From: a bacterium | GTDB taxonomy: Bacteria > Patescibacteriota > Dojkabacteria > SC72 | Direction: 5' to 3' | Assembly (NCBI GenBank): GCA_021463465.1 | Contig: JAJTYH010000003.1 | Coordinates: forward strand, 75,869 to 139,868 | Length of the DNA stretch: 64,000 bases | In this document: positions 4,913 to 38,797 of the stretch, piece by piece | Position numbering within the stretch: the stretch's first letter is position 1 | How the letters are laid out: the number at the start of each line of letters is the position of its first letter | Program-made: the position numbers and the translations under genes | The notes under the pieces: generated by a model | Told to the model about the DNA's origin: nothing | Seen by the model: the letters and a program-made list of their open reading frames with translations, nothing else | The model's database searches: none

Positions 4913-6168
4913 TTAGAGTTAAAGTATTTATCTAAAATTTGAAAAACTCTTTCCCAAGTATACTCCTTAATGAGTTTAGCGTATCCAGCCTTACCCATTT
5001 GTTCACGAAGATCTTGATTATTGAGGAGCTCCTCGATTCTATTCGCTAAACCTTCTACATCATCAAAATTAACCAGATACCCATCCTTACCATCGGAGAT
5101 AACTTCACCTATTGCTTCAATGTTCCCTCCTATCACAGGCTTTTTATTAGCCCATGCCTCAAGATATACAATTCCAAGAGCATCACTTTTAGAAACCATT
5201 GAAAATACATCTCCGGCACTGAGAACGTTAAACTTCTCTTGATCAGACGGGGAATCCAGGTTAATTGTATTTGCCTTAACCATCTCACTCTGTTTCTTCC
5301 AAAATTCTTCAAACTTCAGAGTAGATGAGCCTACCAAGACTAATTTGGCTTTAACTCCTATTTTCCACAGCTTCTCCATAGCTTTGACCAAAGTTAGCAC
5401 TCCTTTCTCCTGCACTTTAGCAGCAATTGTAAATACAATCGGTTCAGTTACGGAATATTTCTTTCTAAACTCCTCACCGTCCCCACTTATTACCTTACCC
5501 ACATCAATACCCACTCCTACCTTCTCAAATTTCTCATCAGTTACCTCCATTCCCCCTTCTTTCATAAACCTTTGTATCGCTCTTCGTTCGGCATCAGTGT
5601 GCACAAAAATTTTATCGGCATCTCTATAAAACTGTCGGCCAACCGGATCAAAATACTTTTTGTACAAAGGGTCAGATTTATCAGTACCTAAGTGTGTTGA
5701 AGAGTGTATATAAAACTTGGCACCAGTCTTCCTGGCGATAGCACGGGCTATATACATCAGCGAAAAGTATGGCATTGTCTGAACTCTAACTACATCATAC
5801 TTTGGGAGGTTGGGATTGAATATTTGCATCCACATTTCAAAACAGGTAGGTGGTGTACCAAGTATTCTTAAGAAAGGAATCGGATTATGAACAAGCAAGT
5901 ACCTAACAGCTTTGTTAATGAAGAGATTATTCATCAAAAAGGGAGTTGTCTTAAACCTCCTTATATGAACATTGTTGTGAATTTCTTCTAATAAATCGAA
6001 CTTTCTGAGTCCAGGAAACCAAATTGCATCAATCTCATCAGCATCGGTTGTCCAAAGATCCACTTGATTGTCAGAATTGCTTGCAGTCCACTCTGCAATC
6101 GTATGCATCATTGCTTCAGCTCCCCCATACGCAGGCCAGTACCTTGGGGTTATATGCAAAATTCTCAT
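4909..6168 (-). CDS. Glycosyltransferase, GT-B fold (family 4-like)
   Basis: C-terminal EAWANKKPVIGGNIEAIGEVISDGKDGYLV matches the EX7E/GT1 motif. Length is 419 aa. Confidence 0.75.
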   Translation of the reverse strand: MRILHITPRYWPAYGGAEAMMHTIAEWTASNSDNQVDLWTTDADEIDAIWFPGLRKFDLLEEIHNNVHIRRFKTTPFLMNNLFINKAVRYLLVHNPIPFLRILGTPPTCFEMWMQIFNPNLPKYDVVRVQTMPYFSLMYIARAIARKTGAKFYIHSSTHLGTDKSDPLYKKYFDPVGRQFYRDADKIFVHTDAERRAIQRFMKEGGMEVTDEKFEKVGVGIDVGKVISGDGEEFRKKYSVTEPIVFTIAAKVQEKGVLTLVKAMEKLWKIGVKAKLVLVGSSTLKFEEFWKKQSEMVKANTINLDSPSDQEKFNVLSAGDVFSMVSKSDALGIVYLEAWANKKPVIGGNIEAIGEVISDGKDGYLVNFDDVEGLANRIEELLNNQDLREQMGKAGYAKLIKEYTWERVFQILDKYFNSK

Positions 6169-6760: not shown

Positions 6761-7858
6761 TTAAAGTTCTTTTGGATCTACTTTCAAGATCATATCATCA
6801 CTCTGACTAGGTGATCCTCTACCATCTTGATTAGATGTCATGAAGTATAAGAATCCATCGGGACCAACTGTTACTCCTCTCAATCGCCCATAAACCCGTG
6901 AAAATTTCTCTTCCAAACTAATTGGGGCAACCTCTGTCTTATACAATGTCTCCCCTCTTAAGCCTGGGAAATACAAATTTCCATCAACAAATGCAAGTCC
7001 AGAAGGTGCCCACGTTATATTAGCTGTCGAATGTAAAGTCGGAGACTCCATACCTTCCTGAGTTTGTGAACCTTCAATAATTGGCCAACCGTAATTCTTA
7101 CCTGCTTCAATAAGGTTCAACTCATCAAAGCCAGAAGTGATACCTGATCGTCCATGTTCAGTTGACCATAACCTACCCTGATTATCCCAGGCTAAACCTT
7201 GAGGGTTACGGTGACCGTAGGAGTACACTGGACTATTAGGGAAGGGATTATCTGAAGGCACTGAACCACTGTCATTTACTCTTAAAATCTTACCTCCAAG
7301 GAAGTTTATTTCTTGAGCTCTCTCGCGTTCTTCCGCATCACCAACAGTGATATAGAGCTTTCCGTCGGGACCAAATTTAATCCTACCTCCATCATGATTT
7401 TTTGAAGCAGGGAGATTATTCAAAATAATATCCCTATTCACTAGTTTATCACCCCTCAACTCATATCTATTCACCTGATTAATTAAAGTACCATCAGGTT
7501 GAACAGTCATATAAAGGTAAATATAAGAGTTTTTCTCAAAATCAGGGTGAAGTGCCATTCCAAGGAGCCCTCCTTCTCCAATATGAACGACTTCGGAGAT
7601 TTTAGTCACACTCCTATCCTTCCCTATTTTTAGGAGGCTTCCAGGGCGTTCAGTTACAAGCATATCGCCGTTTGGAAGGAAAGCAATTTCCCAAGGTATG
7701 GTCAAATTTGTAGCAACTATATCCACACCCCGATCTTTTACAGGAATTTCCTCCAGTTTATCGGCTCGTCTATCACCGGCTGTTTTGAAATACCAGAAGG
7801 CTAACGCAAAGATAACAAGGAGAATTAGGGAAAAAACTAAGAGTAGCCTTTTAAGCAT
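6761..7858 (-). CDS. Soluble quinoprotein glucose/sorbosone dehydrogenase family (beta-propeller), membrane-anchored
   Basis: GPDGKLYITVGD, GHRNPQGLAWD and NYGWP motifs, with an N-terminal TM helix. Start moved to ATG 7856-7858 (MLKRLLLVF...) because the ORF-track start at 8017 overlaps a tRNA gene. Confidence 0.65.
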   Translation of the reverse strand: MLKRLLLVFSLILLVIFALAFWYFKTAGDRRADKLEEIPVKDRGVDIVATNLTIPWEIAFLPNGDMLVTERPGSLLKIGKDRSVTKISEVVHIGEGGLLGMALHPDFEKNSYIYLYMTVQPDGTLINQVNRYELRGDKLVNRDIILNNLPASKNHDGGRIKFGPDGKLYITVGDAEERERAQEINFLGGKILRVNDSGSVPSDNPFPNSPVYSYGHRNPQGLAWDNQGRLWSTEHGRSGITSGFDELNLIEAGKNYGWPIIEGSQTQEGMESPTLHSTANITWAPSGLAFVDGNLYFPGLRGETLYKTEVAPISLEEKFSRVYGRLRGVTVGPDGFLYFMTSNQDGRGSPSQSDDMILKVDPKEL

Positions 7859-7925
7859 GTTTAATAGTAGCACACCGTAAAGTTGTAGAGAATGAATGTC
7901 GGTGTGAGTTCGAAATTTTTCCAAC

Positions 7926-8015
7926 TGGCGGAGAGGCAGGGATTCGAACCCTGGATGGAGTTTCCCCCATAACGCTTTTCGAAAGCGTCTCATTCGACCA
8001 CTCTGACACCTCTCC
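7926..8015 (-). tRNA. tRNA-Ser (anticodon CGA), 90 nt, long variable arm, encoded CCA
   Basis: Reverse complement GGAGAGGTGTCAGAGTGGTCGAATGAGACGCTTTCGAAAAGCGTTATGGGGGAAACTCCATCCAGGGTTCGAATCCCTGCCTCTCCGCCA. Anticodon stem ACGCT/AGCGT, loop TTCGAAA, T-loop TTCGAAT. Confidence 0.85.
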
Positions 8016-8060
8016 AATACGGATAATTATATCTAATACAATGGAATGAAGATATACACA

Positions 8061-9948: not shown

Positions 9949-10626
9949 ATGAATATACTCATTATAGAAGATTCGCCGAATGTTGCACATCTTGTGGGTT
10001 CAATAATAAGAAGCAAAGGGCATATTGAAAAACATCTCAAAAGTCCTGAGATTTCTCTTCAATATTTTAAAGATAATCTATTTGAAGTGGTAATAATAAA
10101 TACCAACCTTCAATACGGCACTCACAAACTAATCCGGGAAATACGAAGGTATGCTGAGAATACTTTTATCATAGGTGTTTCCACTAAGTCTACCTGGAAG
10201 GAAAAAGTCGAGTTTTTAAATGCGGGAGGAGATGATGTACTGGATTACCCTTTTCCTATGCAAGAGTTAGAAGCTCGGATAAATTCACTACTAAGAAGAC
10301 CGAAGAAAAACAATCAAGGGATATTAAAGGTTAAGAATGTAAGTATTAATACCGATTTAAAACAGGTAAATGTAGGGGCAAAACCAGTTCCACTTCGAAG
10401 AAGAGAATTTGCTCTCCTTGAATATATGGTTAAGAATAAAGAGCGAACTATAACCAGAGCAGAACTGCTTGACCATGTATGGGATTACCGAAGGTCAACC
10501 GGTTCTAACACCGTAGATGTCCACGTTAAAAGGTTAAGAGATAAATTGATGGATAAAGATTTGATAGAAACGGTGCACGGTTTTGGTTATGCAATGCGAG
10601 ATAAGAAGATCCCTAAAGCATCATAG
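9949..10626 (+). CDS. OmpR/PhoB-family response regulator with atypical (non-phosphorylatable) receiver domain
   Basis: Receiver plus winged-helix (TVDVHVKRLRDKL) architecture. Alignment to PhoB places Asn at the phospho-acceptor Asp53 position (VVIINTNL vs LILLDWML) and Tyr at Lys105 (DDVLDYPF vs DDYITKPF). Confidence 0.7.
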   Translation: MNILIIEDSPNVAHLVGSIIRSKGHIEKHLKSPEISLQYFKDNLFEVVIINTNLQYGTHKLIREIRRYAENTFIIGVSTKSTWKEKVEFLNAGGDDVLDYPFPMQELEARINSLLRRPKKNNQGILKVKNVSINTDLKQVNVGAKPVPLRRREFALLEYMVKNKERTITRAELLDHVWDYRRSTGSNTVDVHVKRLRDKLMDKDLIETVHGFGYAMRDKKIPKAS

Positions 10627-11743
10627 GCATAATCAAGTGCACGAAAGTATCATCACCTTTGATCTTGAATACACCTGGTTTGACAGGTTCTGAGCTTTCA
10701 AAAACAATCTCTTCTGCACCTATGTTATTAGCCATATCAGAAAGAAATTTAGAAGAGAAAGCCATCTTGATAGCATCGCCTTCTACCTTTCCTGCTACCA
10801 CACTCTTATTACTTCCGACATCAGAAAGAGTCGCAGACATGACTACATTGCTACCTTTAGGATCAATTTCTACGATAATCTTATTACCCAAAACGCTTCG
10901 AGCAATAATATTGGTAACCTTAAGTGAATTAGTAAATTCACTTGTACTTAATTGAACCTGAGTCTTAAAGACAGAAGGCAGGATCTGCTTGTAATCAGGA
11001 TACTGGCCATCAATTAAACGAGAGATAATGTCAACATCGTTATATCTGAAAAGGACTTGATTGCGATCTTCAATAACATAAACTTCCACGTCATCCTTGC
11101 CATCCTGCCCTGCAAATTCAGTAAGAACAAATGCAAGCTCTTGCATTGCCTTAACAGGAACTAAGAAGTGAGAATTCTCTTTAACTTCCGAAGAAAGCTT
11201 GATACTTTGCTTAGAAAGTCGAAGGCCATCGGCAGCTACAAAAGAAGCCGTTTTACCCTCCAACTCGATTTTAATACCAGTAAGTACAGGTTTAACATCG
11301 TCAGAAGCGGCAGCAAAAGCAACCCTATTAATAGATAACAACAAATCCTCTTTATTGAGTTTAAGAACAGGCTTTCCTCCTCCAGCAGTTGCTACTTTAG
11401 GATAATCATCAGCAGGAATTGTATGGAACTGAGCTGAATTGTTTACTGTACTAACATCTAGTACCTGTTTATCCAAAACAACATCAACCTTTTCAGAAGG
11501 AATACTGTTAACAAACTCAGAAATCTGTTTAGCAGGAACTGTAACTGCCCCTTCTGACTTACTCTCAATCCCAATCCATGTATTAATCCCTATCTCCAAA
11601 TCGGTAGCTGTCATTACCAACTTACCCTTCTGAACTTCAATGAGAATATTGCTTAAAATAGGAAGTCCAGGTTTACTGTTAACAACTCTACTTACCACAT
11701 TTAGATACTTGGCAAAAGTGTCTTGATTACAGGAGAATTGCAT
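10613..11743 (-). CDS. dnaN: DNA polymerase III subunit beta (sliding clamp)
   Basis: 376 aa. N-terminus MQFSCNQDTFAKYLNVVSRVV...LPILSNILIEV is typical of DnaN. Immediately downstream of dnaA. Confidence 0.85.
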   Translation of the reverse strand: MQFSCNQDTFAKYLNVVSRVVNSKPGLPILSNILIEVQKGKLVMTATDLEIGINTWIGIESKSEGAVTVPAKQISEFVNSIPSEKVDVVLDKQVLDVSTVNNSAQFHTIPADDYPKVATAGGGKPVLKLNKEDLLLSINRVAFAAASDDVKPVLTGIKIELEGKTASFVAADGLRLSKQSIKLSSEVKENSHFLVPVKAMQELAFVLTEFAGQDGKDDVEVYVIEDRNQVLFRYNDVDIISRLIDGQYPDYKQILPSVFKTQVQLSTSEFTNSLKVTNIIARSVLGNKIIVEIDPKGSNVVMSATLSDVGSNKSVVAGKVEGDAIKMAFSSKFLSDMANNIGAEEIVFESSEPVKPGVFKIKGDDTFVHLIMPMML

Positions 11744-12194
11744 ATTTTAGGACTTCACAAATTTAAACTCTTGGGGCTTAGTTCAGTATACATGATTGAC
11801 CTAGGGGTATCAAAGATTTTTTGTTAATCTTTAATTCCTTGAGTGTATCTAGAGATATATAATATAAAACAGTAGTAGTTGTAGTAGAGAGTGTAGATAT
11901 GTCTATAACTTTTAATTAAACGCGGGATTAAAAGTTTTCTCCCCTATTTTGAACTGTGTATAGAATTTTCCTAAGTAAACTGTGTAAAGTATAAAGAAGG
12001 TTTATGTGACAATTAAACTTTCAGGTGGATAACTTTTGAGGATAAATCTCCTGAATAATATCTTTATTTGTGGGTAATTAAATTAGAAAAAACCTTTAAT
12101 TAACTACAATAAACGATATTACGTGGTTTTCCTTTATGGATAACTCGCCAATTTATCCTTGAGTTATTCAAAGTTATCCACTTACTTATCCACA
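11744..12194. promoter_or_regulatory. Candidate chromosomal replication origin (oriC): DnaA boxes, GC cluster, TAG-triplet (DnaA-trio-like) run and AT-rich candidate DUE
   Basis: DnaA-box matches at 12024-12032, 12037-12045, 12069-12077, 12135-12143, 12174-12182 and 12186-12194 (the last is a perfect TTATCCACA). TAG-repeat at 11873-11896, CGCGGG at 11921-11926, AT-rich stretch 11821-11870. Confidence 0.6.
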
Positions 12195-13604
12195 TCACGC
12201 AAGAAGTGCTTTGCACTTTTCAATCTTTTCTTTGAAACGAACCTCTTTTTCAATCATTTCACCTATCTTCTCACAAGCATGAAGTACAGTGGTATGGTCT
12301 TTGCGATTAACTTCCTTTGCGACTTTCTCAAGAGGTAGTTGCAACTCTTCTCTTAAAAGATACATGATGACTTGTCTAGCTCTTGCTAAGTATGAAGTTC
12401 GACTTTTTCCCTTGATCTCTTTTTGAGTTACATCGAAAACTTCACAAACCGCGTCTATAACTCTCTCAGGCTTAATTCTCTTGCGCTTACTTTCAATATC
12501 AAACTGTAGATATTTTGCGATATTTTCGGCATTAGGCTCTTCTCCAAACTTACTCATAGACAAAATCTTAGTAATTGCTCCCTCTAATTCACGTACGTTA
12601 CTTTCGATGTTTTTAGCTATCAATTCTAGAATCTCAGTTTCAATACTGACCCCCTTCTCTTCCAATAGATACTTAAGAATAGCCATTCTCGTTTCAATGT
12701 CCGGAGATTGGATATCAGCTACCATTCCTCCCTCAAACCTTGATCTTAAACGATCCGTTAGATTTTTTATTTCTCTTGGTGGACGGTCTGCTGCCAATAC
12801 AATCTGCTTATTGGCCAGATAGAGTGAATTAAAGGTATTGAAAAGCTCTTCTTGAGTTTTGGCGTAAGTTTCTACGAACTGAATGTCATCAATAATTAAA
12901 AGATCAATCTCCCTGTACTTTTTTCTGAACACTTCATTAGTTTTCCCTCTAATTGAATCAATCATTTCGTTTAAGAACTGTTCGATTGGTACGTACATCA
13001 CTTTCTTATCTGGATATTTTTGAAGGATTTCATTACCAATAGATTGCATGAGATGTGTCTTGCCTACTCCGGTGGGTCCGTAGTAGAAGACTGGGTTATA
13101 AGCCCTGCCTAGATCCGCCACAACTGCCTCTGCCACCGCGTAAGCGAGTTTGTTGTGTGCACCAACCACAAAGTTGGCGAAACGGTATTTGGGATTAAGC
13201 TGTGACCTTCTGGATTTGTTTTCTGGGTCGACTGCTTTTGTTGGCATTTGGAAGATTGAAACCGTCTCAGAAGTGTCTTCTGGAGTTATATCTTTAATAA
13301 ATGATGAACGTACGGTGAAAACTAGTTCTAAGTTCTGTCCTGTAGCTGAGAGTAATGATTTTCTAATCACTGCGCGATGGTACATTTCTAACCATTCACG
13401 TTTAAAGCCCTGGTCGCATGAAATCTCTGCCATGCCATTCTCAATCTTTGATAAGTACACGCCACCAAACCATGAGTCGTATTCTCTTTTGGATATGTAG
13501 AGGCGAATATTCTCAGATACGATTTTCCAGATATCATCGATATCAAAAGTATTCTGAGGTGTTTTTGCGGCTTTTAAATTCGGCTTTTCTATATCAGCAC
13601 TCAT
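12195..13604 (-). CDS. dnaA: Chromosomal replication initiator protein DnaA
   Basis: Walker A GPTGVGKTH, AAA+ core, and a C-terminal domain IV signature (VIMYLLREELQLPLEKVAKEVNRKDHTTVLHACEKI). Confidence 0.95.
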   Translation of the reverse strand: MSADIEKPNLKAAKTPQNTFDIDDIWKIVSENIRLYISKREYDSWFGGVYLSKIENGMAEISCDQGFKREWLEMYHRAVIRKSLLSATGQNLELVFTVRSSFIKDITPEDTSETVSIFQMPTKAVDPENKSRRSQLNPKYRFANFVVGAHNKLAYAVAEAVVADLGRAYNPVFYYGPTGVGKTHLMQSIGNEILQKYPDKKVMYVPIEQFLNEMIDSIRGKTNEVFRKKYREIDLLIIDDIQFVETYAKTQEELFNTFNSLYLANKQIVLAADRPPREIKNLTDRLRSRFEGGMVADIQSPDIETRMAILKYLLEEKGVSIETEILELIAKNIESNVRELEGAITKILSMSKFGEEPNAENIAKYLQFDIESKRKRIKPERVIDAVCEVFDVTQKEIKGKSRTSYLARARQVIMYLLREELQLPLEKVAKEVNRKDHTTVLHACEKIGEMIEKEVRFKEKIEKCKALLA

Positions 13605-13670
13605 AATCTAAAAGGATTAATGTTTGAGGGGGGCGGTACCAAAAACTAGACAATTCTTATTTATCAGATT

Positions 13671-13702
13671 TGTGGATAACTTGTAAAGGGGGTTGTGGAT
13701 AA
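13671..13702. promoter_or_regulatory. Two perfect DnaA boxes (TGTGGATAA at 13671-13679 and 13694-13702) in the dnaA upstream region
   Basis: Direct repeat TTGTGGATAAC x2 within the 142-bp gap upstream of dnaA. It overlaps a candidate TTACAA-17-TAAATA promoter on the minus strand, which would allow autoregulation. Confidence 0.55.
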
Positions 13703-13746
13703 CCTCGTTATCAAGGCTTTCGGGTTCACTCTTTTTGCCGTAGATA

Positions 13747-15942
13747 TTATTTTTTTAGTCCTAGCTGTTCGAATACGTTAAGGCTTTGAGTTCTCTTCGC
13801 AGTCTTAACTTTCTGTTTAATTGGAATCTTTACGGTGAAAACGGAACCTTTTCCTGGCTCGCTTTGAACATCAAACTTTCCTCCGTGTTTCTCTACAATC
13901 CCAATACTTACATATAGACCAAGACCCGTTCCTCCTGGCCTGGTTACTAGATGTTTTTCCGCAGTGTCGGCTCTATAAAACTTTTCTCCAAGGTGTTTCA
14001 ATCCCTCTTTGGAAATACCTACACCACTGTCTTTTATCTCTATTATATAACTTCCTTTCTCTTTAGAAAGTTCTACTTGGATCTCACCTTCGTGTGTGTA
14101 TTTAACTGCGTTACTTATAAGATTATCGAAAACCTCAAGCATTCGGGTTTTATCGATCTCAATCTCCCAAGCTTCTGCTCCCTTTGGAGTTTTAAATAAA
14201 AACTTTAGTCCTTTTTTGTTGATGTCGTGAATGTGCGCTTCGTAGCTTTCCCTTAAAGTTTCAACGATTTTAAAAGTCTCAATGCTAAGCTCCAGTTTAT
14301 TCTGATCTAATTTGGTCGCACCAAGCAGCGAATTTATAAGTCTCCCTTCTCTCAGAATCGCAGAGCTAATGTTATTAATGTAATTGTCTAAGGTAGAAAG
14401 TAATTTAGAACCTTTGAGCTTTTGTATCATTAGTTCAAATTGAAGCCGAATGATACTAATAGGTGTTCTTAGTTCGTGGCCCATGATATCAATCATGTCC
14501 CTTTCTCTTTGTTGTGCAGCAAGCAATAGTTCATATTTCTCATTGATTTCTTTAGTTTGATTTTTTACTTTCTGCTCAAGTTCTAAGTTGAATTTAGTAA
14601 CTTCTGAATAAAGGTCGGCTCGAGATATGCTGATTGAAGCATTTTGAGCCAGTAGTTGGATTAATTCATACTCTTTCGATTCTAAGGAGATATTCCCTCC
14701 TGAAAGCTTCACTAAACCGAAAATGCCCTTATCTTTTAATAAGGGTATTATGAGGATAATTTTCTTTTCAATAAGTGTTCGGAAGTATTTTTCTAGCCAC
14801 GGGGCAAAGTTCTTGTTTGAATAACTTCTGTCAATAACAATTTCAGGAGTGATTGGTTCTGTTGAATCATTCTCTTTCCACCATTTCATTGTAAGTTCAG
14901 TCACAGAATCTTTTGAATTTGGGGTGAACTCAATTTTTATTTCAGTTCGAGGAAACATTGACATCAAGGTTTTTTTTAACTCTTCCTTGATTTTTGGGCG
15001 TTCGAAAATTGTTGCAGTTTTAGAGTTGAATTCGAGGACTTGTCCTTTTAATCGCTCAAATCCTACCTGTGTGGATTTAATGAATTCGTTTCCTATCAGA
15101 TATAGGATAGATAGCAGAGTTATTGCTGAAAGAACAACTCCTAAGGTACTTATTTCATCTTGATATCTTTGAAATATGTATACAGCGGAAGTAGTTAAAA
15201 TAGACAAAAGTATTATTGTTAGGATTCTAACAATATCCTCGCGGATATCAGCAAGGAAAGCTTTGATAAAAAACGTTTGGTTAGTAACGTAAAGAAGTAG
15301 CCCAAGGGAGATAAAAGCTGTTGGTCCATATTCAATTAGTCCTACTGCAGGAAAATAAGTGAGGCCAATTCCCAAGGAGACATACACAATTGCTAACGTA
15401 GTAACCAAAACAAATATTTGGCTACGCTGTGTCCGAGTGTAATTTTTGATGTTGCCGAACCAATGGGTAAGTGCAGTTATTAGTATAATGATGGCATAAA
15501 GGAGAGATACTGAATAAAACCCCCCAGGCGCATATTCGGCGGGGCCGTCCATAACAATTTTGAAGGCAGTAAGGTTATTGTCGGAATTTATTCCAAAAGC
15601 AAAGACTCCTGTAAGTAGGATAGTCCCTATAAGAATAAGGTTTACAAAAAGAGATCTTTTTCGATTGATGCTTTGAGGGAAAATAGATGCGATTCCTAAA
15701 AATGCTGACATGAAGTTCAATGGAAAAAGGATTGCTAGACGTGCTGAAGTTGAAGCTATCTCGTAATTCTTGGAAAGGTCCGCCACCGCATTTGTAATTA
15801 TCCATCCAAAAACCGTGAGTAGAAGATAGAGATAAAGCAGCTGTTCGGAACCTTTGAGATTCTGTCTCCGTTTAAGGAAAGAAAATAGGTTTATTCCCAG
15901 CGTAAGCAGTACGAAGGCGTAGATTATGTATAAATTGATCAC
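13747..15942 (-). CDS. Sensor histidine kinase with N-terminal polytopic (about 7TM) membrane domain
   Basis: About 7 hydrophobic helices in the first ~290 aa, an H-box MGHELRTPIS, and the HATPase_c G2 box GGTGLGLYVSIGIVEKHGG. Confidence 0.8.
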   Translation of the reverse strand: MINLYIIYAFVLLTLGINLFSFLKRRQNLKGSEQLLYLYLLLTVFGWIITNAVADLSKNYEIASTSARLAILFPLNFMSAFLGIASIFPQSINRKRSLFVNLILIGTILLTGVFAFGINSDNNLTAFKIVMDGPAEYAPGGFYSVSLLYAIIILITALTHWFGNIKNYTRTQRSQIFVLVTTLAIVYVSLGIGLTYFPAVGLIEYGPTAFISLGLLLYVTNQTFFIKAFLADIREDIVRILTIILLSILTTSAVYIFQRYQDEISTLGVVLSAITLLSILYLIGNEFIKSTQVGFERLKGQVLEFNSKTATIFERPKIKEELKKTLMSMFPRTEIKIEFTPNSKDSVTELTMKWWKENDSTEPITPEIVIDRSYSNKNFAPWLEKYFRTLIEKKIILIIPLLKDKGIFGLVKLSGGNISLESKEYELIQLLAQNASISISRADLYSEVTKFNLELEQKVKNQTKEINEKYELLLAAQQRERDMIDIMGHELRTPISIIRLQFELMIQKLKGSKLLSTLDNYINNISSAILREGRLINSLLGATKLDQNKLELSIETFKIVETLRESYEAHIHDINKKGLKFLFKTPKGAEAWEIEIDKTRMLEVFDNLISNAVKYTHEGEIQVELSKEKGSYIIEIKDSGVGISKEGLKHLGEKFYRADTAEKHLVTRPGGTGLGLYVSIGIVEKHGGKFDVQSEPGKGSVFTVKIPIKQKVKTAKRTQSLNVFEQLGLKK

Positions 15943-15947
15943 TTCCT

Positions 15948-17033
15948 CTATTTAAAAATTTTTGGGAAGGGTTTCATTTGGAATTGCTCAAATACTGAGG
16001 TATAGGCTCCGGCTTGTTCTATAGCAATGACCTCGCCTACTCTGAGGTCGCTTGGCAGTAAAACCCTTTGCCTAATAATATCATATCCGTCGCAAGAATA
16101 GCCTCCTAGTTTGAAGTATTTTAACTTCCCTCTTTTGCTCATGTTTTGAACAGTAACAGGGTATTCAAATCCTTCTAACGCTTCAATTACTCCCCCGAAA
16201 ACGCTAGTGTCCAAGACTGCGAGTGGGGGTCTTTTGTAAGGTTTAATGTCAATTACTTTGGTATATAAGGTCATAACATTTGCTACCATTGCTCTTCCTG
16301 GCTCCAAATATAATTTCAAATTTGGATGTCTTGTTTTTAGTTTGACGATTCGAGCGATTAACTTGTCAATATAAAAATCTAAAGGTTTAACCTCTGGTGA
16401 GTATTTTGCTGGTATTCCTCCTCCTAAATTCAATCTTTCTATCACAATTCCCTTTCTTCCAGCGTAATCAATACAAGACAGCGCCGTCTTTATTGCGGTG
16501 TCCCATGAACTGAGATCTATATTTTGTGAGCCAATATGAAAAGAAACTCCCGCAATATTCCAACCGTTCTTACTGGCCTTACTAATGATTTTTTTGAAAT
16601 AGGTTTCTGTCATCCCAAATTTCTCAGACAGGTTGAAGGCCGCGGCTTTATTTGAAGTTCCTATTCTTGCAAAGATCAATGGATTTTTGACATGTCGGTA
16701 TATCTTTAGAATTTCTTCTTCTGAGTCGACTGTAAATATCTTAACGCCCTTTTTTGCTGCATACTCTACGTCGTCTTCCATCTTTGATGGAGCTGAAAAC
16801 GAGATGTTCTCTGGAGTGGATCCTGATTTCAGTGCGAGTTCTATTTCTTCTGCCGATGCCACATCAAACCCAAACCCACTTTTAATTAACGAATTTACAA
16901 TATCGAAATAGTTATTGGCTTTTAATGCGAAAAGGATATCAACCCCTAAACTTTGGATTTTTGTGAACTGAGCAATGTTTTCTCTAAAAGATTTGTCGTC
17001 AAAGATAAAAAATGGAGTTTTATAGTTTTTCAT
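15948..17033 (-). CDS. Type III (alanine-racemase fold) PLP-dependent decarboxylase, Orn/DAP/Arg/carboxynorspermidine decarboxylase family
   Basis: FALKAN (PLP Lys), HIGSQ and EPGRAMVA motifs. 361 aa. Confidence 0.7.
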   Translation of the reverse strand: MKNYKTPFFIFDDKSFRENIAQFTKIQSLGVDILFALKANNYFDIVNSLIKSGFGFDVASAEEIELALKSGSTPENISFSAPSKMEDDVEYAAKKGVKIFTVDSEEEILKIYRHVKNPLIFARIGTSNKAAAFNLSEKFGMTETYFKKIISKASKNGWNIAGVSFHIGSQNIDLSSWDTAIKTALSCIDYAGRKGIVIERLNLGGGIPAKYSPEVKPLDFYIDKLIARIVKLKTRHPNLKLYLEPGRAMVANVMTLYTKVIDIKPYKRPPLAVLDTSVFGGVIEALEGFEYPVTVQNMSKRGKLKYFKLGGYSCDGYDIIRQRVLLPSDLRVGEVIAIEQAGAYTSVFEQFQMKPFPKIFK

Positions 17034-17044
17034 ATTTAATTCTA

Positions 17045-18070
17045 TTAGGTGAGATTAAGCTTCAGAACTCCAAAAACCATTGGAATTCCTTTAAAGGAGG
17101 GGATTATCTTTTCTTCCGTATAGTTGATACCTTTCCCAACAGTCTTCCTGGCGGTATAGTTTGCTACAGTCGCTAAACCTTTTTCAGCTACCAACGTTCC
17201 ATGGAGTGTGAAATAAACCATCTGTTTTGGAAGCTTGTCTCTTTCACCTCCTACAATTTGAGTAAAGTACTCTATTCCTGCCTTTAATGTTATTTCGTCC
17301 ATAGCTTGTCCTGACTCGACTTTACCTATCTCGGCTAGGTATATGGTTGAAGCGTTATCTTCTAGCGCTGCTTGTCCAAGAACTTTTTGAAGTTCGTTTG
17401 GCTCTAGGTAATGAGAAAGCTCATCAGCTAATTGCTGATTTACCCCAGAAGTGCTTTCGTACTCGATTGCTCTTATCCTAGCCACAGCAAGAGGTAGTGC
17501 AATATTAACATCCTTACTCTTGCCTAATCTTTGGAAGATAACATTAGGTGAGCCTCGTTGAATGCCTCCTAGCATAACAAGAGAATGTGGATTATCCATT
17601 TCCCTTAAATATGCGTCTAATAATTTTTTTGTGGGGTATTCAGTTCTTATAACAACATTTTGCTCATTACTTGCTGCAAGCGATTCTCTTAGTGCAGAGA
17701 TTTCTCGCATCTCTTCTGGGAGTATCCATTTAGCTTGTATATACCCTTCTATTGCTTCGTATTCAAGGAATGCATCTATGGTATTCAAAATATGCTGTCT
17801 GTCAATTTCCCATCGCTCTGTCCATCTCCCTTCACTGATGTCTGATTGAGTACCGTTCGTATACAATAGCTTGATAAGAGAGTTTGTTACTTCAGGTATT
17901 CTTAGGAGTGGGCCAACTACCTCACCATTTACTGACCACTCTTCACTTAAAGGAGGTTTCGAGAATACAGATGTAACCACAGCTACGCTTTGAATTACCT
18001 CTTCAGGATATTCTGCTTGTTCGTAAACTTTCTGGTGATCAAGTTTTGTTGCGCCATTAAGATCAAACAT
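17045..18070 (-). CDS. Hypothetical protein (341 aa), no recognised domain
   Basis: ORF with typical codon usage, contiguous with the decarboxylase gene. No motifs recognised by eye. Confidence 0.3.
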   Translation of the reverse strand: MFDLNGATKLDHQKVYEQAEYPEEVIQSVAVVTSVFSKPPLSEEWSVNGEVVGPLLRIPEVTNSLIKLLYTNGTQSDISEGRWTERWEIDRQHILNTIDAFLEYEAIEGYIQAKWILPEEMREISALRESLAASNEQNVVIRTEYPTKKLLDAYLREMDNPHSLVMLGGIQRGSPNVIFQRLGKSKDVNIALPLAVARIRAIEYESTSGVNQQLADELSHYLEPNELQKVLGQAALEDNASTIYLAEIGKVESGQAMDEITLKAGIEYFTQIVGGERDKLPKQMVYFTLHGTLVAEKGLATVANYTARKTVGKGINYTEEKIIPSFKGIPMVFGVLKLNLT

Positions 18071-18122
18071 ATCTGGCTATTATACACCGAAGTGCTAGGC
18101 TTTTCCTCTATCGGATATACCG

Positions 18123-18151
18123 TTTACACGGATAGATACATAATATATAAT
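18123..18151 (+). promoter_or_regulatory. Candidate sigma-70 promoter for the rpmH operon (TTTACA-17-TATAAT)
   Basis: -35 TTTACA at 18123-18128, 17-nt spacer, -10 TATAAT at 18146-18151, about 28 nt upstream of the rpmH ATG. Confidence 0.4.
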
Positions 18152-18179
18152 TGGCCTGCTTCAAGTGAATAACTAGCTA

Positions 18180-18362
18180 ATGAAAAGAACATATCAACCA
18201 AAAAAACGAAGAAGACTCTCAACACTGGGCTTTCTAGCCCGCAGTGCTTCCAAGTCTGGAAGAAAGGTATTACAACGAAGACGAGCCAAGGGTAGAAAAT
18301 CTCTTACAGTTTCTGAAGAGTTTAAACTACTAAGAAAGAAGCCAAGAGCTGGCATCAGGTAA
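18180..18362 (+). CDS. rpmH: 50S ribosomal protein L34
   Basis: [40 protein letters not shown] is a canonical L34 sequence. Confidence 0.9.
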
Positions 18363-36373: not shown

Positions 36374-38797
36374 CTATCTAACTATTTCGGAGTCAGGGAA
36401 AAATTTTACAACATTCTCTTCAAGTAACTTCACAGCTTTCTCCACTTCCTCTTTTTTCATTTTGTCGTGACCTTGGGCAATTATATATACGTTTTTAGTT
36501 TTAGTTGTCACTTTGGTACGCTCTCCTTGTTTAACATCTAACCTACAAACAATCCCCGTGCTGTCTATATACGCATACTCCCCACTCTCAGCATATGTTT
36601 CAATTTTTCCAATTGCTTCATATTGGGTTTTCTCTTTTAGTACATCTAACTGTATCTGGTCGTCTAGCTTGTCAATATCGTGAGCACCAAATGATATTCC
36701 AGTCACGTAGGAAATAGCGTTGTAGAGGTCGACAAAAGTATTAACCTTCACTTGTTTACCCTTTGCAAAGTTCTCTCTTAGCCCAGCAGATGAAGAAGGG
36801 ATGCCTTTAACCTTGGAATATTGGTCGTGTAGCTTCATGTATTTATCATCAATATCTTTCAATTGTTTGGGATTAACAATCTTTAAATACTCCTCTATCC
36901 AGGTATTCAGATTTTTGTTGGAGCGACTGACTTTTAAACCTTTGAATTTGGTAGTGACAATTGGTAGAGCGTTTAACTCAGGCGCAACAACTAAGTTAGC
37001 GGCATTGAAGTTATTACCTCTTTTAGGCTGTTCCAAACTTCCATCTACAGCTTTAAGATCATCTGTGTATTCAAGTTTCTCAAAAAGTATAGTTGGTGTT
37101 TTGATTTTTATACCAGAGGGGAGTTTATTGAAATACCATTGATCTATGTACTTTGATACTCTCCCTTTGGTTCTCACCTCCTCTGTTGGATCGTAATCAT
37201 CGGTTACGCCTAATATTTCGCCTAACCGTTTTACAGTATTAGGAGTGAAAGGTTTAAGGAGTACTCGGAAAGAGTTCACCAACTGAATTGTGTTGTAGAT
37301 TGTTTTCTCAGCCGCACTTTTTTCACTTTTAATAGTTATCCAAGGTTGTCTATCATTGAAGTATTTGTTAGCGAAATGGCCCAACTCTAGTATCAGTTCT
37401 GCTGCTTTAATAAATTCTGACTTCTCTAGTGACTGACCAACTAAAGAGAAAGTTTCGTTGATCTTATCCTTAACTTCAGGCTCTAGTTCGTTATCTGGAA
37501 CAATCCCATTGAATTTGGTGTGAAGGAATGTAAGAGAACGATTGATAAAGTTACCTATATTAGCAACAAGCTCATTGTTATTAGCGTCAATAAAATCTCT
37601 CCAGATATATTCTCTATCATGATTTTCTGGTCCATATCTTACGAAGAAGTATCGAATTAGGTCGGGATCATATTTTTGTAATAGTTGGTCTATACCTATG
37701 CCTGTACCATCGCCCTTGGACATTTTCTTCCCCTTGAAAAAGAGCATCTTATTAGCCGGAACATCAAATGGTAAATTCAATGGCTTTGATGCACTCTCAC
37801 CTGGAAGTAGATATTTTTTTTCGAGCTCAGTTCCATATTTCTTGTTATATGCTAAAAGTTCAGCTGGCCACATTATGGTGTGGAAAGGTACATTACCTCC
37901 AGCTATAAAGTAGTAGTGCTCGCATTCCGGATTCTTCCAAAACTCTTCCCAGAGCGCTGGATTCTTTTGATTTGCTGCCCATTCGATTGCGGCTGAGAGA
38001 TAGCCAACTACAGCTTCAATCCATACATATATAACTTTGTCCTCCCACCCTTCAACAGGTACCTTCACACCAAATGTTAGGTCACGGGTCACCGCTCTGG
38101 CTTCAAGTCCCTGCTTAACCCAACCTTTGGTAAATTCTCGAACCCATTTTCTCCATCTTCGGTTGTTAGCTCTAACGTACTTAGAGATATCTCCTTCGAG
38201 TTTCTCTAAGGTCATGTAGAAGTGCTTGGTTTTTTTAAGTTTTGGTGTCGAATCAGATAGAGTACTGTAAGGGTCGATAAGATCCGTTGGGTTTAAGAAG
38301 GCACCGCACTGCGGACACTCGTCGCCTCTAGCATTTGGTTCCTTGCAATTCGGACATGTACCACGAACATATCGATCGGGTAGGAATCTTTTAACTTTCG
38401 AGTCGTAATACTGTTCCGATTCTCTAACTTCTAAATATCCTAATTCCTTTAAAACAAGGAATATATTCTGTACCACAGCCTTATGATTATCTGTTGTGGT
38501 TCTAGTGTAGTTCTCATAGATAAATCCGAGTTTTTCAAAAGTCTTAACAATTTCGTTGTGATATTTGGCAGCTAAATCTGCAGGGGTCATTTTTAACTCC
38601 TCTGCCTTAAATATTACGGGTGTACCATGGCTGTCACTACCCGAAACCATAAGTACATCATGTCCTCTTAGTCGGTGATAACGTGCAAACACGTCGCAAG
38701 CCACATTTTGACCAGCTAAATGTCCTAAATGGATGTTGCCATTAACGTAAGGCCATGAGACTCCGATGAAGATTTTTTTCGGGGTAGGATAATCCAT
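36374..38797 (-). CDS. metG: Methionine--tRNA ligase with ~270-aa C-terminal extension containing a B3/B4-like tRNA-binding domain
   Basis: Class I HIGH-region (YVNGNIHLGH), Zn knuckles (CPNCKEPNARGDECPQCG) and KMSKGDG (KMSKS). C-terminal VDLYNAISYVTGISFGAHDIDKL resembles the PheT B3/B4 core. Confidence 0.85.
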   Translation of the reverse strand: MDYPTPKKIFIGVSWPYVNGNIHLGHLAGQNVACDVFARYHRLRGHDVLMVSGSDSHGTPVIFKAEELKMTPADLAAKYHNEIVKTFEKLGFIYENYTRTTTDNHKAVVQNIFLVLKELGYLEVRESEQYYDSKVKRFLPDRYVRGTCPNCKEPNARGDECPQCGAFLNPTDLIDPYSTLSDSTPKLKKTKHFYMTLEKLEGDISKYVRANNRRWRKWVREFTKGWVKQGLEARAVTRDLTFGVKVPVEGWEDKVIYVWIEAVVGYLSAAIEWAANQKNPALWEEFWKNPECEHYYFIAGGNVPFHTIMWPAELLAYNKKYGTELEKKYLLPGESASKPLNLPFDVPANKMLFFKGKKMSKGDGTGIGIDQLLQKYDPDLIRYFFVRYGPENHDREYIWRDFIDANNNELVANIGNFINRSLTFLHTKFNGIVPDNELEPEVKDKINETFSLVGQSLEKSEFIKAAELILELGHFANKYFNDRQPWITIKSEKSAAEKTIYNTIQLVNSFRVLLKPFTPNTVKRLGEILGVTDDYDPTEEVRTKGRVSKYIDQWYFNKLPSGIKIKTPTILFEKLEYTDDLKAVDGSLEQPKRGNNFNAANLVVAPELNALPIVTTKFKGLKVSRSNKNLNTWIEEYLKIVNPKQLKDIDDKYMKLHDQYSKVKGIPSSSAGLRENFAKGKQVKVNTFVDLYNAISYVTGISFGAHDIDKLDDQIQLDVLKEKTQYEAIGKIETYAESGEYAYIDSTGIVCRLDVKQGERTKVTTKTKNVYIIAQGHDKMKKEEVEKAVKLLEENVVKFFPDSEIVR

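Follow-up and report, generated by a model that had tools for sequence, protein, structure and literature searches.

Among described replication origins, the closest counterpart of the locus presented here is incC of Bacillus subtilis with its basal unwinding system (BUS; Richardson 2016; Richardson 2019, PMC6669920; Pelliciari 2021, PMC8287927; Pelliciari 2023, PMC10721633). In Supplementary Table S1 of PMC8287927, the B. subtilis module is composed of AATAGGTGT, TTAGGTGT, CCGG and GATGATAATGAAGATGAT (GATGAT..., written 3' to 5') with a spacer of 12, and the same layout, consisting of a 9-mer box, an abutting 8-mer box and 4 bp, is given for Listeria, S. aureus and C. botulinum; the corresponding E. 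coli entry is composed of AATAGGTGT, CCCGTCACGC and TAGGATTAT. In addition to DnaA-box#6/7 and the trios, B. subtilis requires a distal box, which can be placed in either orientation at a distance of 22-462 bp and which probably acts via a loop (PMC6669920). Under the published search rule, three or more NAN trios must have, no further than 16 bp away, a box that deviates from the consensus at two positions or fewer (PMC8287927, section 13), GAT being the commonest trio next to the box and 12-13 bp the commonest spacers (PMC8287927). In Pelliciari 2021 (PMC8287927), a BUS is predicted in 85% of 2070 DoriC origins across bacterial phyla; the covered part of its tables yielded no entry for the candidate phyla radiation (CPR), Patescibacteria or Saccharibacteria, and a literature search retrieved no paper combining 'DnaA-trio' with a CPR term. 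On the protein side, the DnaA residues N187, I190, I193, R202 and E228 of B. subtilis were assigned to the capture of trio bases by cryo-EM and alanine scanning (PMC10721633).

The DNA analysed in our work is a 64-kb stretch of a Dojkabacteria contig, hereafter the window, in which dnaA and dnaN, both encoded on the minus strand, are separated by a gap of 451 bp (11744-12194). This gap is the second-largest intergenic gap of the window and has an overall AT content of 70.7%. The two genes and the site preceding dnaN are as follows.

12195-13604, minus strand: dnaA, 469 aa, with the Pfam domains Bac_DnaA, Bac_DnaA_C and DnaA_N
10613-11743, minus strand: dnaN (beta clamp), 376 aa, with all three DNA_pol3_beta Pfam domains
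11785-11813, minus strand: dnaN promoter-like site TTGATA-17-TATACT, with 10 of 12 consensus matches

Judged from its sequence, the gap is very probably the chromosomal oriC of this Dojkabacteria genome, carrying a BUS of the B. subtilis incC type. The basis of this reading is the anatomy of the gap, its Firmicute-BUS geometry, its conservation and uniqueness, the position of the skew switch and the residues of DnaA. The order put forward by the original prediction, in which boxes, trios, an AT-rich DUE and dnaN succeed one another as in incC, has survived every test that was run, and the module is built base for base like that of B. subtilis, so that the locus would represent an ordinary origin in an understudied lineage. 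Against this reading can be set that the boxes next to the trios carry two and one mismatches, that the central A is missing from trio 3, that K222/E223 of B. subtilis DnaA are replaced, and that the published BUS rule is permissive.

Other occupants of the gap were considered and rejected: an ncRNA because no Rfam family matched at E <= 1 within 11500-14000, and a dnaA terminator because no terminator-like site is present within 11744-12194. On the far side of dnaN, an OmpR-type response regulator (9949-10626, plus strand), whose 3' end overlaps that of dnaN by 14 bp, stands alone on the plus strand among the genes of the left 18 kb and would run head-on to the inferred direction of replication. 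Elsewhere in the window, ARAGORN places a tRNA-Ser(cga) at 7926-8015 on the minus strand, unreported by Rfam at the gathering threshold, which overlaps the 5' end of a TTG-start ORF (6761-8017) whose true start is probably located further downstream. The methionyl-tRNA synthetase encoded at 36374-38797 (minus strand) has at its C-terminus a B3_4 domain (Pfam PF03483, E 9.5e-20), which is typical of the PheRS beta subunit.

The presumptive unwinding module consists of five adjoining elements.

11900-11908, minus strand: trio-proximal 9-mer box TTATAGACA, two mismatches, at the module place of B. subtilis DnaA-box#6
11892-11899, minus strand: trio-proximal 8-mer box TATCTACA, one mismatch to TATCCACA, abutting the 9-mer at the place of DnaA-box#7
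11888-11891, minus strand: spacer CTCT, 4 bp, between the 8-mer box and trio #1
11870-11887, plus strand: DnaA-trio array CAG TAG TAG TTG TAG TAG (3'-GAT-5' repeats), trio #1 being 11885-11887
11845-11869, no strand assigned: candidate DNA unwinding element (DUE), 84% AT, adjoining the last trio

In the dnaA sense, the module is composed of TTATAGACA, TATCTACA, CTCT and CTA CTA CAA CTA CTA CTG. The minus strand, with TTATAGACA TATCTACA CTCT CTACTA..., thereby displays the strand order 5'-TTATCCACA-spacer-(CTA)n-3', and comparison with the published table entries for B. subtilis, S. aureus and E. coli served to verify this orientation. Outward from the box and read on the plus strand, the trios are TAG, TAG, TTG, TAG, TAG and CAG; a central A is present in five of the six (the exception being trio 3) and the exact 3'-GAT-5' in four, which provides at least three consecutive in-register trios with a central A and a GAT beside the box. 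The distance to trio 1 is 12 bp for the 9-mer and 4 bp for the 8-mer, the latter interval, CTCT, being equivalent to what the BUS definition calls the 'GC-rich' gap of 4 bp. The window in this way follows the search rules that underlie the predicted BUS modules of Pelliciari 2021.

The original prediction had delimited a run of TAG triplets at 11873-11896 and had placed it about 130 bp from the boxes, i.e. further than expected from B. subtilis. The run itself is present; the three triplets at its end (AGA GTG TAG, 11888-11896) do not belong to the trios, as they represent the 4-bp spacer AGAG and the start of the 8-mer box. The distance proved incorrect, given that two degenerate boxes at 11892-11908 abut the trios; because these proximal boxes adjoin the trios with a spacer geometry exactly as in B. 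subtilis, the concern about spacing is resolved. The sequence CGCGGG, proposed as the GC cluster, is indeed found at 11921-11926 and was rejected for that role, since both proximal boxes separate it from the trios and since it is not conserved: it lies 12 bp beyond the proximal boxes in a stretch that is unconserved in the gap alignment. An apparently unusual, 8-bp overlapping spacing of the boxes was also dropped as a peculiarity, because the published table shows B. subtilis box#7 to be an abutting 8-mer.

The AT-rich stretch expected at 11821-11870 was recovered with an AT content of 78%, its sharpest low-stability segment being the narrower 11845-11869. In terms of nearest-neighbour energies, this segment has the lowest stability of all 25-mers in the gap and the third lowest within the 64 kb (99.97th percentile), and it is situated on the side of the trios that faces away from the boxes.

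The locus shares with B. subtilis incC its position between dnaA and dnaN, the number of six trios, the identity of the DnaA capture residues and the succession of distal boxes, tandem proximal boxes facing the trios, 4-bp spacer, trios, DUE and dnaN; the geometry of a 9-mer, an abutting 8-mer and 4 bp agrees to the base pair, including the spacer of 12. It differs in that DnaA-box#6 of B. subtilis is a perfect consensus, whereas in the window the two proximal boxes (TTATAGACA and TATCTACA) are degenerate, and in that the spacer is CTCT instead of GGCC (dnaA sense; CCGG when written 3' to 5') and is therefore less GC-rich. Further differences are a distance of 115 bp to the nearest strong box, a minimal, two-box cluster upstream of dnaA and the lack of in-place conservation of K222/E223 of DnaA. 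The oriC of E. coli (R1 box plus 13-mer DUE) resembles the window in that an unwinding region containing TAG lies 5' of a TGTGGATAA-orientation box, both on one strand, and differs by its single box, its 10-bp spacer, its only three weak trios, its dependence on IHF and its location, which is not beside dnaA.

The window dnaA product matches B. subtilis DnaA (8BTG) at E 1.4e-94, and alignment of the two proteins shows that all five capture residues are identical, being N212, I215, I218, R227 and E253 in the window protein. The arginine finger is likewise kept (R289, equivalent to B. subtilis R264), so that the ISM residues expected for a BUS-type oriC are present with the arginine finger included, and the DHTTV box-reading motif is found as well. 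At the B. subtilis backbone-contact residues K222/E223 the window protein has Y247/A248, with a lysine two residues later.

In order to compare dnaA-dnaN gaps among related genomes, a DnaA protein search of species-representative genomes was performed, which returned approximately 45 Dojkabacteria loci whose DnaA proteins are 52-75% identical to that of the window and which are labelled Candidatus Dojkabacteria or candidate division WS6 (CPR/Patescibacteria). Thirty-six of their gaps were usable, making 37 sequences with the window. Without exception, these 36 gaps have the in-register module, as [T/A]TATCAAC[A/T], TATCCATA, CTC[TCA] and CTA CTA CTA..., the spacer taking the form CTC[TCA] in most relatives; the conservation anticipated for the TAG run is thus borne out. 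In 35 of the 36 gaps the module is located 278-312 bp after the dnaA stop (571 bp in L040), and its distance to the dnaN start is 129-185 bp in most relatives. At the 9-mer box, T2, T4, A7 and C8 are invariant (37/37), and the TATCTAC(A/C) variant of the 8-mer box is common to the nearest relatives (L001, L038 and L043). Trios 1 and 2 are CTA or TTA throughout (37/37), two of their three bases being invariant, while the middle base is kept in 37/37, 37/37 and 36/37 sequences at trios 1, 2 and 6, respectively; in every relative, the trios are followed by an AT-rich block. A MAFFT alignment of the gaps gives 80-99% column identity at the module and at the box positions versus 30-50% elsewhere, and in this alignment the -10 block of the dnaN promoter-like site is also kept among relatives.

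A profile built from the relatives alone, with the window left out, was searched against the 64 kb using nhmmer and produced a single match, at 11910-11871 on the minus strand (E 4.2e-8). The profile has one significant match per Dojkabacteria locus, always downstream of dnaA and, wherever dnaN is present, inside the dnaA-dnaN gap. Most Dojkabacteria gaps measure 406-490 bp versus approximately 40 bp in Nitrospirae, the outliers among Dojkabacteria being L004 (840 bp), L017 (571 bp), L040 (703 bp) and L034 (46 bp). In L004, about 390 extra bp are located between the DUE and dnaN, and in L034 and L040 the 3' end of dnaA is truncated or frameshifted, a condition that may stem from the assembly or reflect a genuine rearrangement. 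AGTAGAA repeats beyond the DUE, conserved in the larger Dojkabacteria clade, were rejected as a second set of trios; they seem better read as the -35/-10 elements of a dnaN promoter (TAGAAA-17-TAGAAT), which align with TTGATA-17-TATACT of the window.

Outside Dojkabacteria, the profile matches two gaps of Levyibacteria, also members of the CPR, at E 3.6e-5. In these loci (L077, 7565-7604; L079, 5102-5141) the sequence is composed of TTTTCCACT, TATCCATA, TACA and CTA CTA CGA in the same geometry of 9-mer, 8-mer, 4 bp and trios, with the module only about 45 bp before dnaN, and a more degenerate version is present in a third Levyibacteria locus (L075, 7469-7503). Weak matches (E 0.01-0.9) were obtained in three Nitrospirae loci (L049, L050 and L057, at approximately 5740-5793 on the minus strand), upstream of dnaA and in the opposite orientation, which suggests that in Nitrospirae the unwinding module may reside on the other side of dnaA.

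The remaining boxes of the gap are listed below, with gap positions referring to the alignment.

12186-12194, plus strand: perfect DnaA box TTATCCACA, abutting the dnaA stop codon and facing away from the trios; kept in relatives (gap position 1-23)
12174-12182, plus strand: DnaA box TTATCCACT, one mismatch, oriented as the box at 12186 and part of a conserved column block
12135-12143, minus strand: distal DnaA box TTATCCATA, one mismatch, facing the trios; conserved, gap position ~52
12069-12077, minus strand: distal DnaA box TTACCCACA, one mismatch; conserved, gap position ~118-125
12037-12045, minus strand: distal DnaA box TTATCCTCA, one mismatch; conserved, gap position ~150
12024-12032, minus strand: distal DnaA box TTATCCACC, one mismatch; conserved, gap position ~163
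11955-11963, minus strand: degenerate box CTATACACA, two mismatches, at the site of a conserved box in relatives

The 64 kb were scanned for boxes with at most one mismatch to TTATCCACA and compared with shuffled sequence, which gave 31 boxes in the window versus 18.4 +/- 4.0 in the shuffles, and six in the 451-bp gap versus approximately 0.13 expected. These six correspond to the 9-mers named in the original prediction, all of which were found where it had placed them. Its view that they share one orientation was not upheld, as the boxes at 12174 and 12186 oppose the other four: read on the plus strand, those at 12024, 12037, 12069 and 12135 are TGTGGATAA-like, and those at 12174 and 12186 are TTATCCAC(T/A). 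In the MAFFT alignment, conserved box positions are found at approximately 1, 13, 52, 120, 150, 164 and 232 of the gap, the consensus TTATC.ACA at positions 232-240 being shared by 90-99% of the aligned sequences. The strong boxes at 12024-12194 are located 115-300 bp from the proximal boxes and occur in both orientations; by analogy with B. subtilis, they fit the role of its distal boxes and may be their counterparts.

GC skew was analysed over 64 kb of the approximately 453-kb contig, so that any minimum is a local one only. In the window, raw skew has strongly negative values as far as approximately 14 kb, after which it becomes noisy, because gene strand dominates it. Per-gene skew was therefore fitted as the sum of a gene-strand term and a replication-direction term, with the following residuals.

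Switch at 9.5-13.7 kb: third-position RSS 84-90
Switch at 18.2 kb: third-position RSS 120.8
No switch: third-position RSS 190.7

Positions of 9.5, 12.0 and 13.7 kb are fitted about equally well. The fit is in favour of the dnaA locus as the site of the origin, and the divergent region at rpmH is rejected by it; with regard to the refuting condition named in the original prediction, the strand-corrected switch falls at 9.5-13.7 kb and not at 18.1 kb. Within the 64 kb of contig, the origin context thus comprises a skew switch, a box cluster and a position between dnaA and dnaN. Among relatives, the minimum of the raw cumulative skew is at dnaA in 14 of 23, and it points to the start of dnaA and not to its end, which is the expected gene-strand effect; considering that the coding-strand skew of dnaA dominates, this measure has no power to separate the two gaps flanking dnaA and was rejected as a discriminator between them.

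The gap upstream of dnaA, which measures 142 bp, contains boxes of its own.

13671-13679 and 13694-13702, minus strand: two perfect DnaA boxes TTATCCACA, 23 bp apart

Such a pair, together with a box that recurs at -85 to -130 in all Dojkabacteria loci whose sequence extends upstream of dnaA and a skew fit that is about as good at 13.7 kb as at 12.0 kb, would agree with a bipartite origin, as formed by incAB and incC in B. subtilis or as described for H. pylori, in which the upstream boxes are a required second part of oriC. We regard this as unlikely, without dismissing it: relatives usually have one to three boxes upstream versus six to nine downstream, no trios are found beside the boxes within the 142-bp gap, and this gap, at 61% AT, is without a marked AT-rich element. 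Because the upstream boxes coincide with the expected location of -35 and -10 elements for dnaA, they probably belong to an autoregulated dnaA promoter, and possibly serve as an accessory part of the origin. A bipartite arrangement would in any case add to the main explanation, the downstream gap still being the site of unwinding.

It is very improbable that the gap does no more than drive dnaN under DnaA control or titrate DnaA by its boxes, with the origin located elsewhere, be it in the rpmH region at 18.1 kb or outside the window. The good promoter-like site in the gap would be compatible with this, as would the fact that oriC is not beside dnaA in some bacteria, for example E. coli, and the gene-strand switch at 18.07-18.18 kb. 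The usual adjacency of rpmH (18180-18362, plus strand) and dnaA is broken in the window by three genes.

13747-15942: histidine kinase
15948-17033: Orn/DAP decarboxylase
17045-18070: 341-aa protein without Pfam or NCBIfam match

However, the box scan detected no DnaA box in the divergent gap at 18071-18179 and the strand-corrected skew fit is clearly worse at 18.2 kb, on which grounds 18.1 kb was rejected as the origin; moreover, promoter or titration functions would leave the in-register trios, the tandem boxes and the least stable DNA of the gap unexplained in 37 species.

Finally, the notion that chance alone produced the TAG run, as a low-complexity repeat of AT-rich intergenic DNA, and likewise the neighbouring two-mismatch boxes can practically be discarded: although two-mismatch boxes are frequent in 39% GC DNA and a looser BUS scan, which expects approximately 0.1 chance matches per 64 kb, did find one match inside a gene (near 7870), the run is the sole site of the window, on either strand, with at least four TAG per five in-register triplets (0.027 expected per 64 kb in first-order Markov simulations), and this notion is refuted by the conservation data, the module being in register in every relative and being found (E 4e-8) by a profile built without the window.

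Under the preferred reading of the downstream gap as a BUS-type oriC, opening of the origin would proceed as follows. DnaA-ATP would occupy the strong distal boxes at 12024-12194 and also fill the tandem proximal boxes TTATAGACA and TATCTACA at 11892-11908. From these proximal boxes, a DnaA oligomer would cross the 4-bp spacer onto the plus-strand trios at 11870-11887, where it would capture the G and A of each trio (5'-TAG-3' four times, plus TTG and CAG). Stretching of the plus strand would then open the AT-rich segment at 11845-11869, at which the helicase would be loaded, and the putative dnaN promoter (11785-11813) would be situated beyond the unwinding element.

No new way of origin opening is revealed by this work, which documents a canonical BUS-type oriC for a class of the CPR; the base-for-base match to Firmicutes would be satisfying to the specialist and no surprise. 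It defines, at the level of single bases and with comparative validation, an origin of one CPR lineage, the usual practice in this group being simply to assume that the origin is at dnaA, and this may be of use for the curation of genome start points, for the estimation of replication rates from metagenomic peak-to-trough ratios, and for the construction of replicating vectors for CPR bacteria that are not yet amenable to genetic manipulation. It also adds to the evidence that an unwinding module of box plus trios, with its Firmicute spacer geometry, is ancestral in bacteria. That the precise architecture predates the split of the CPR from other bacteria, given the exact Firmicute BUS geometry across Dojkabacteria and Levyibacteria, is a plausible suggestion, made tentatively and falling somewhat short of probable. 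Under this suggestion, these very small genomes would possess a naturally minimal origin, in which weak proximal boxes depend on strong distal ones.
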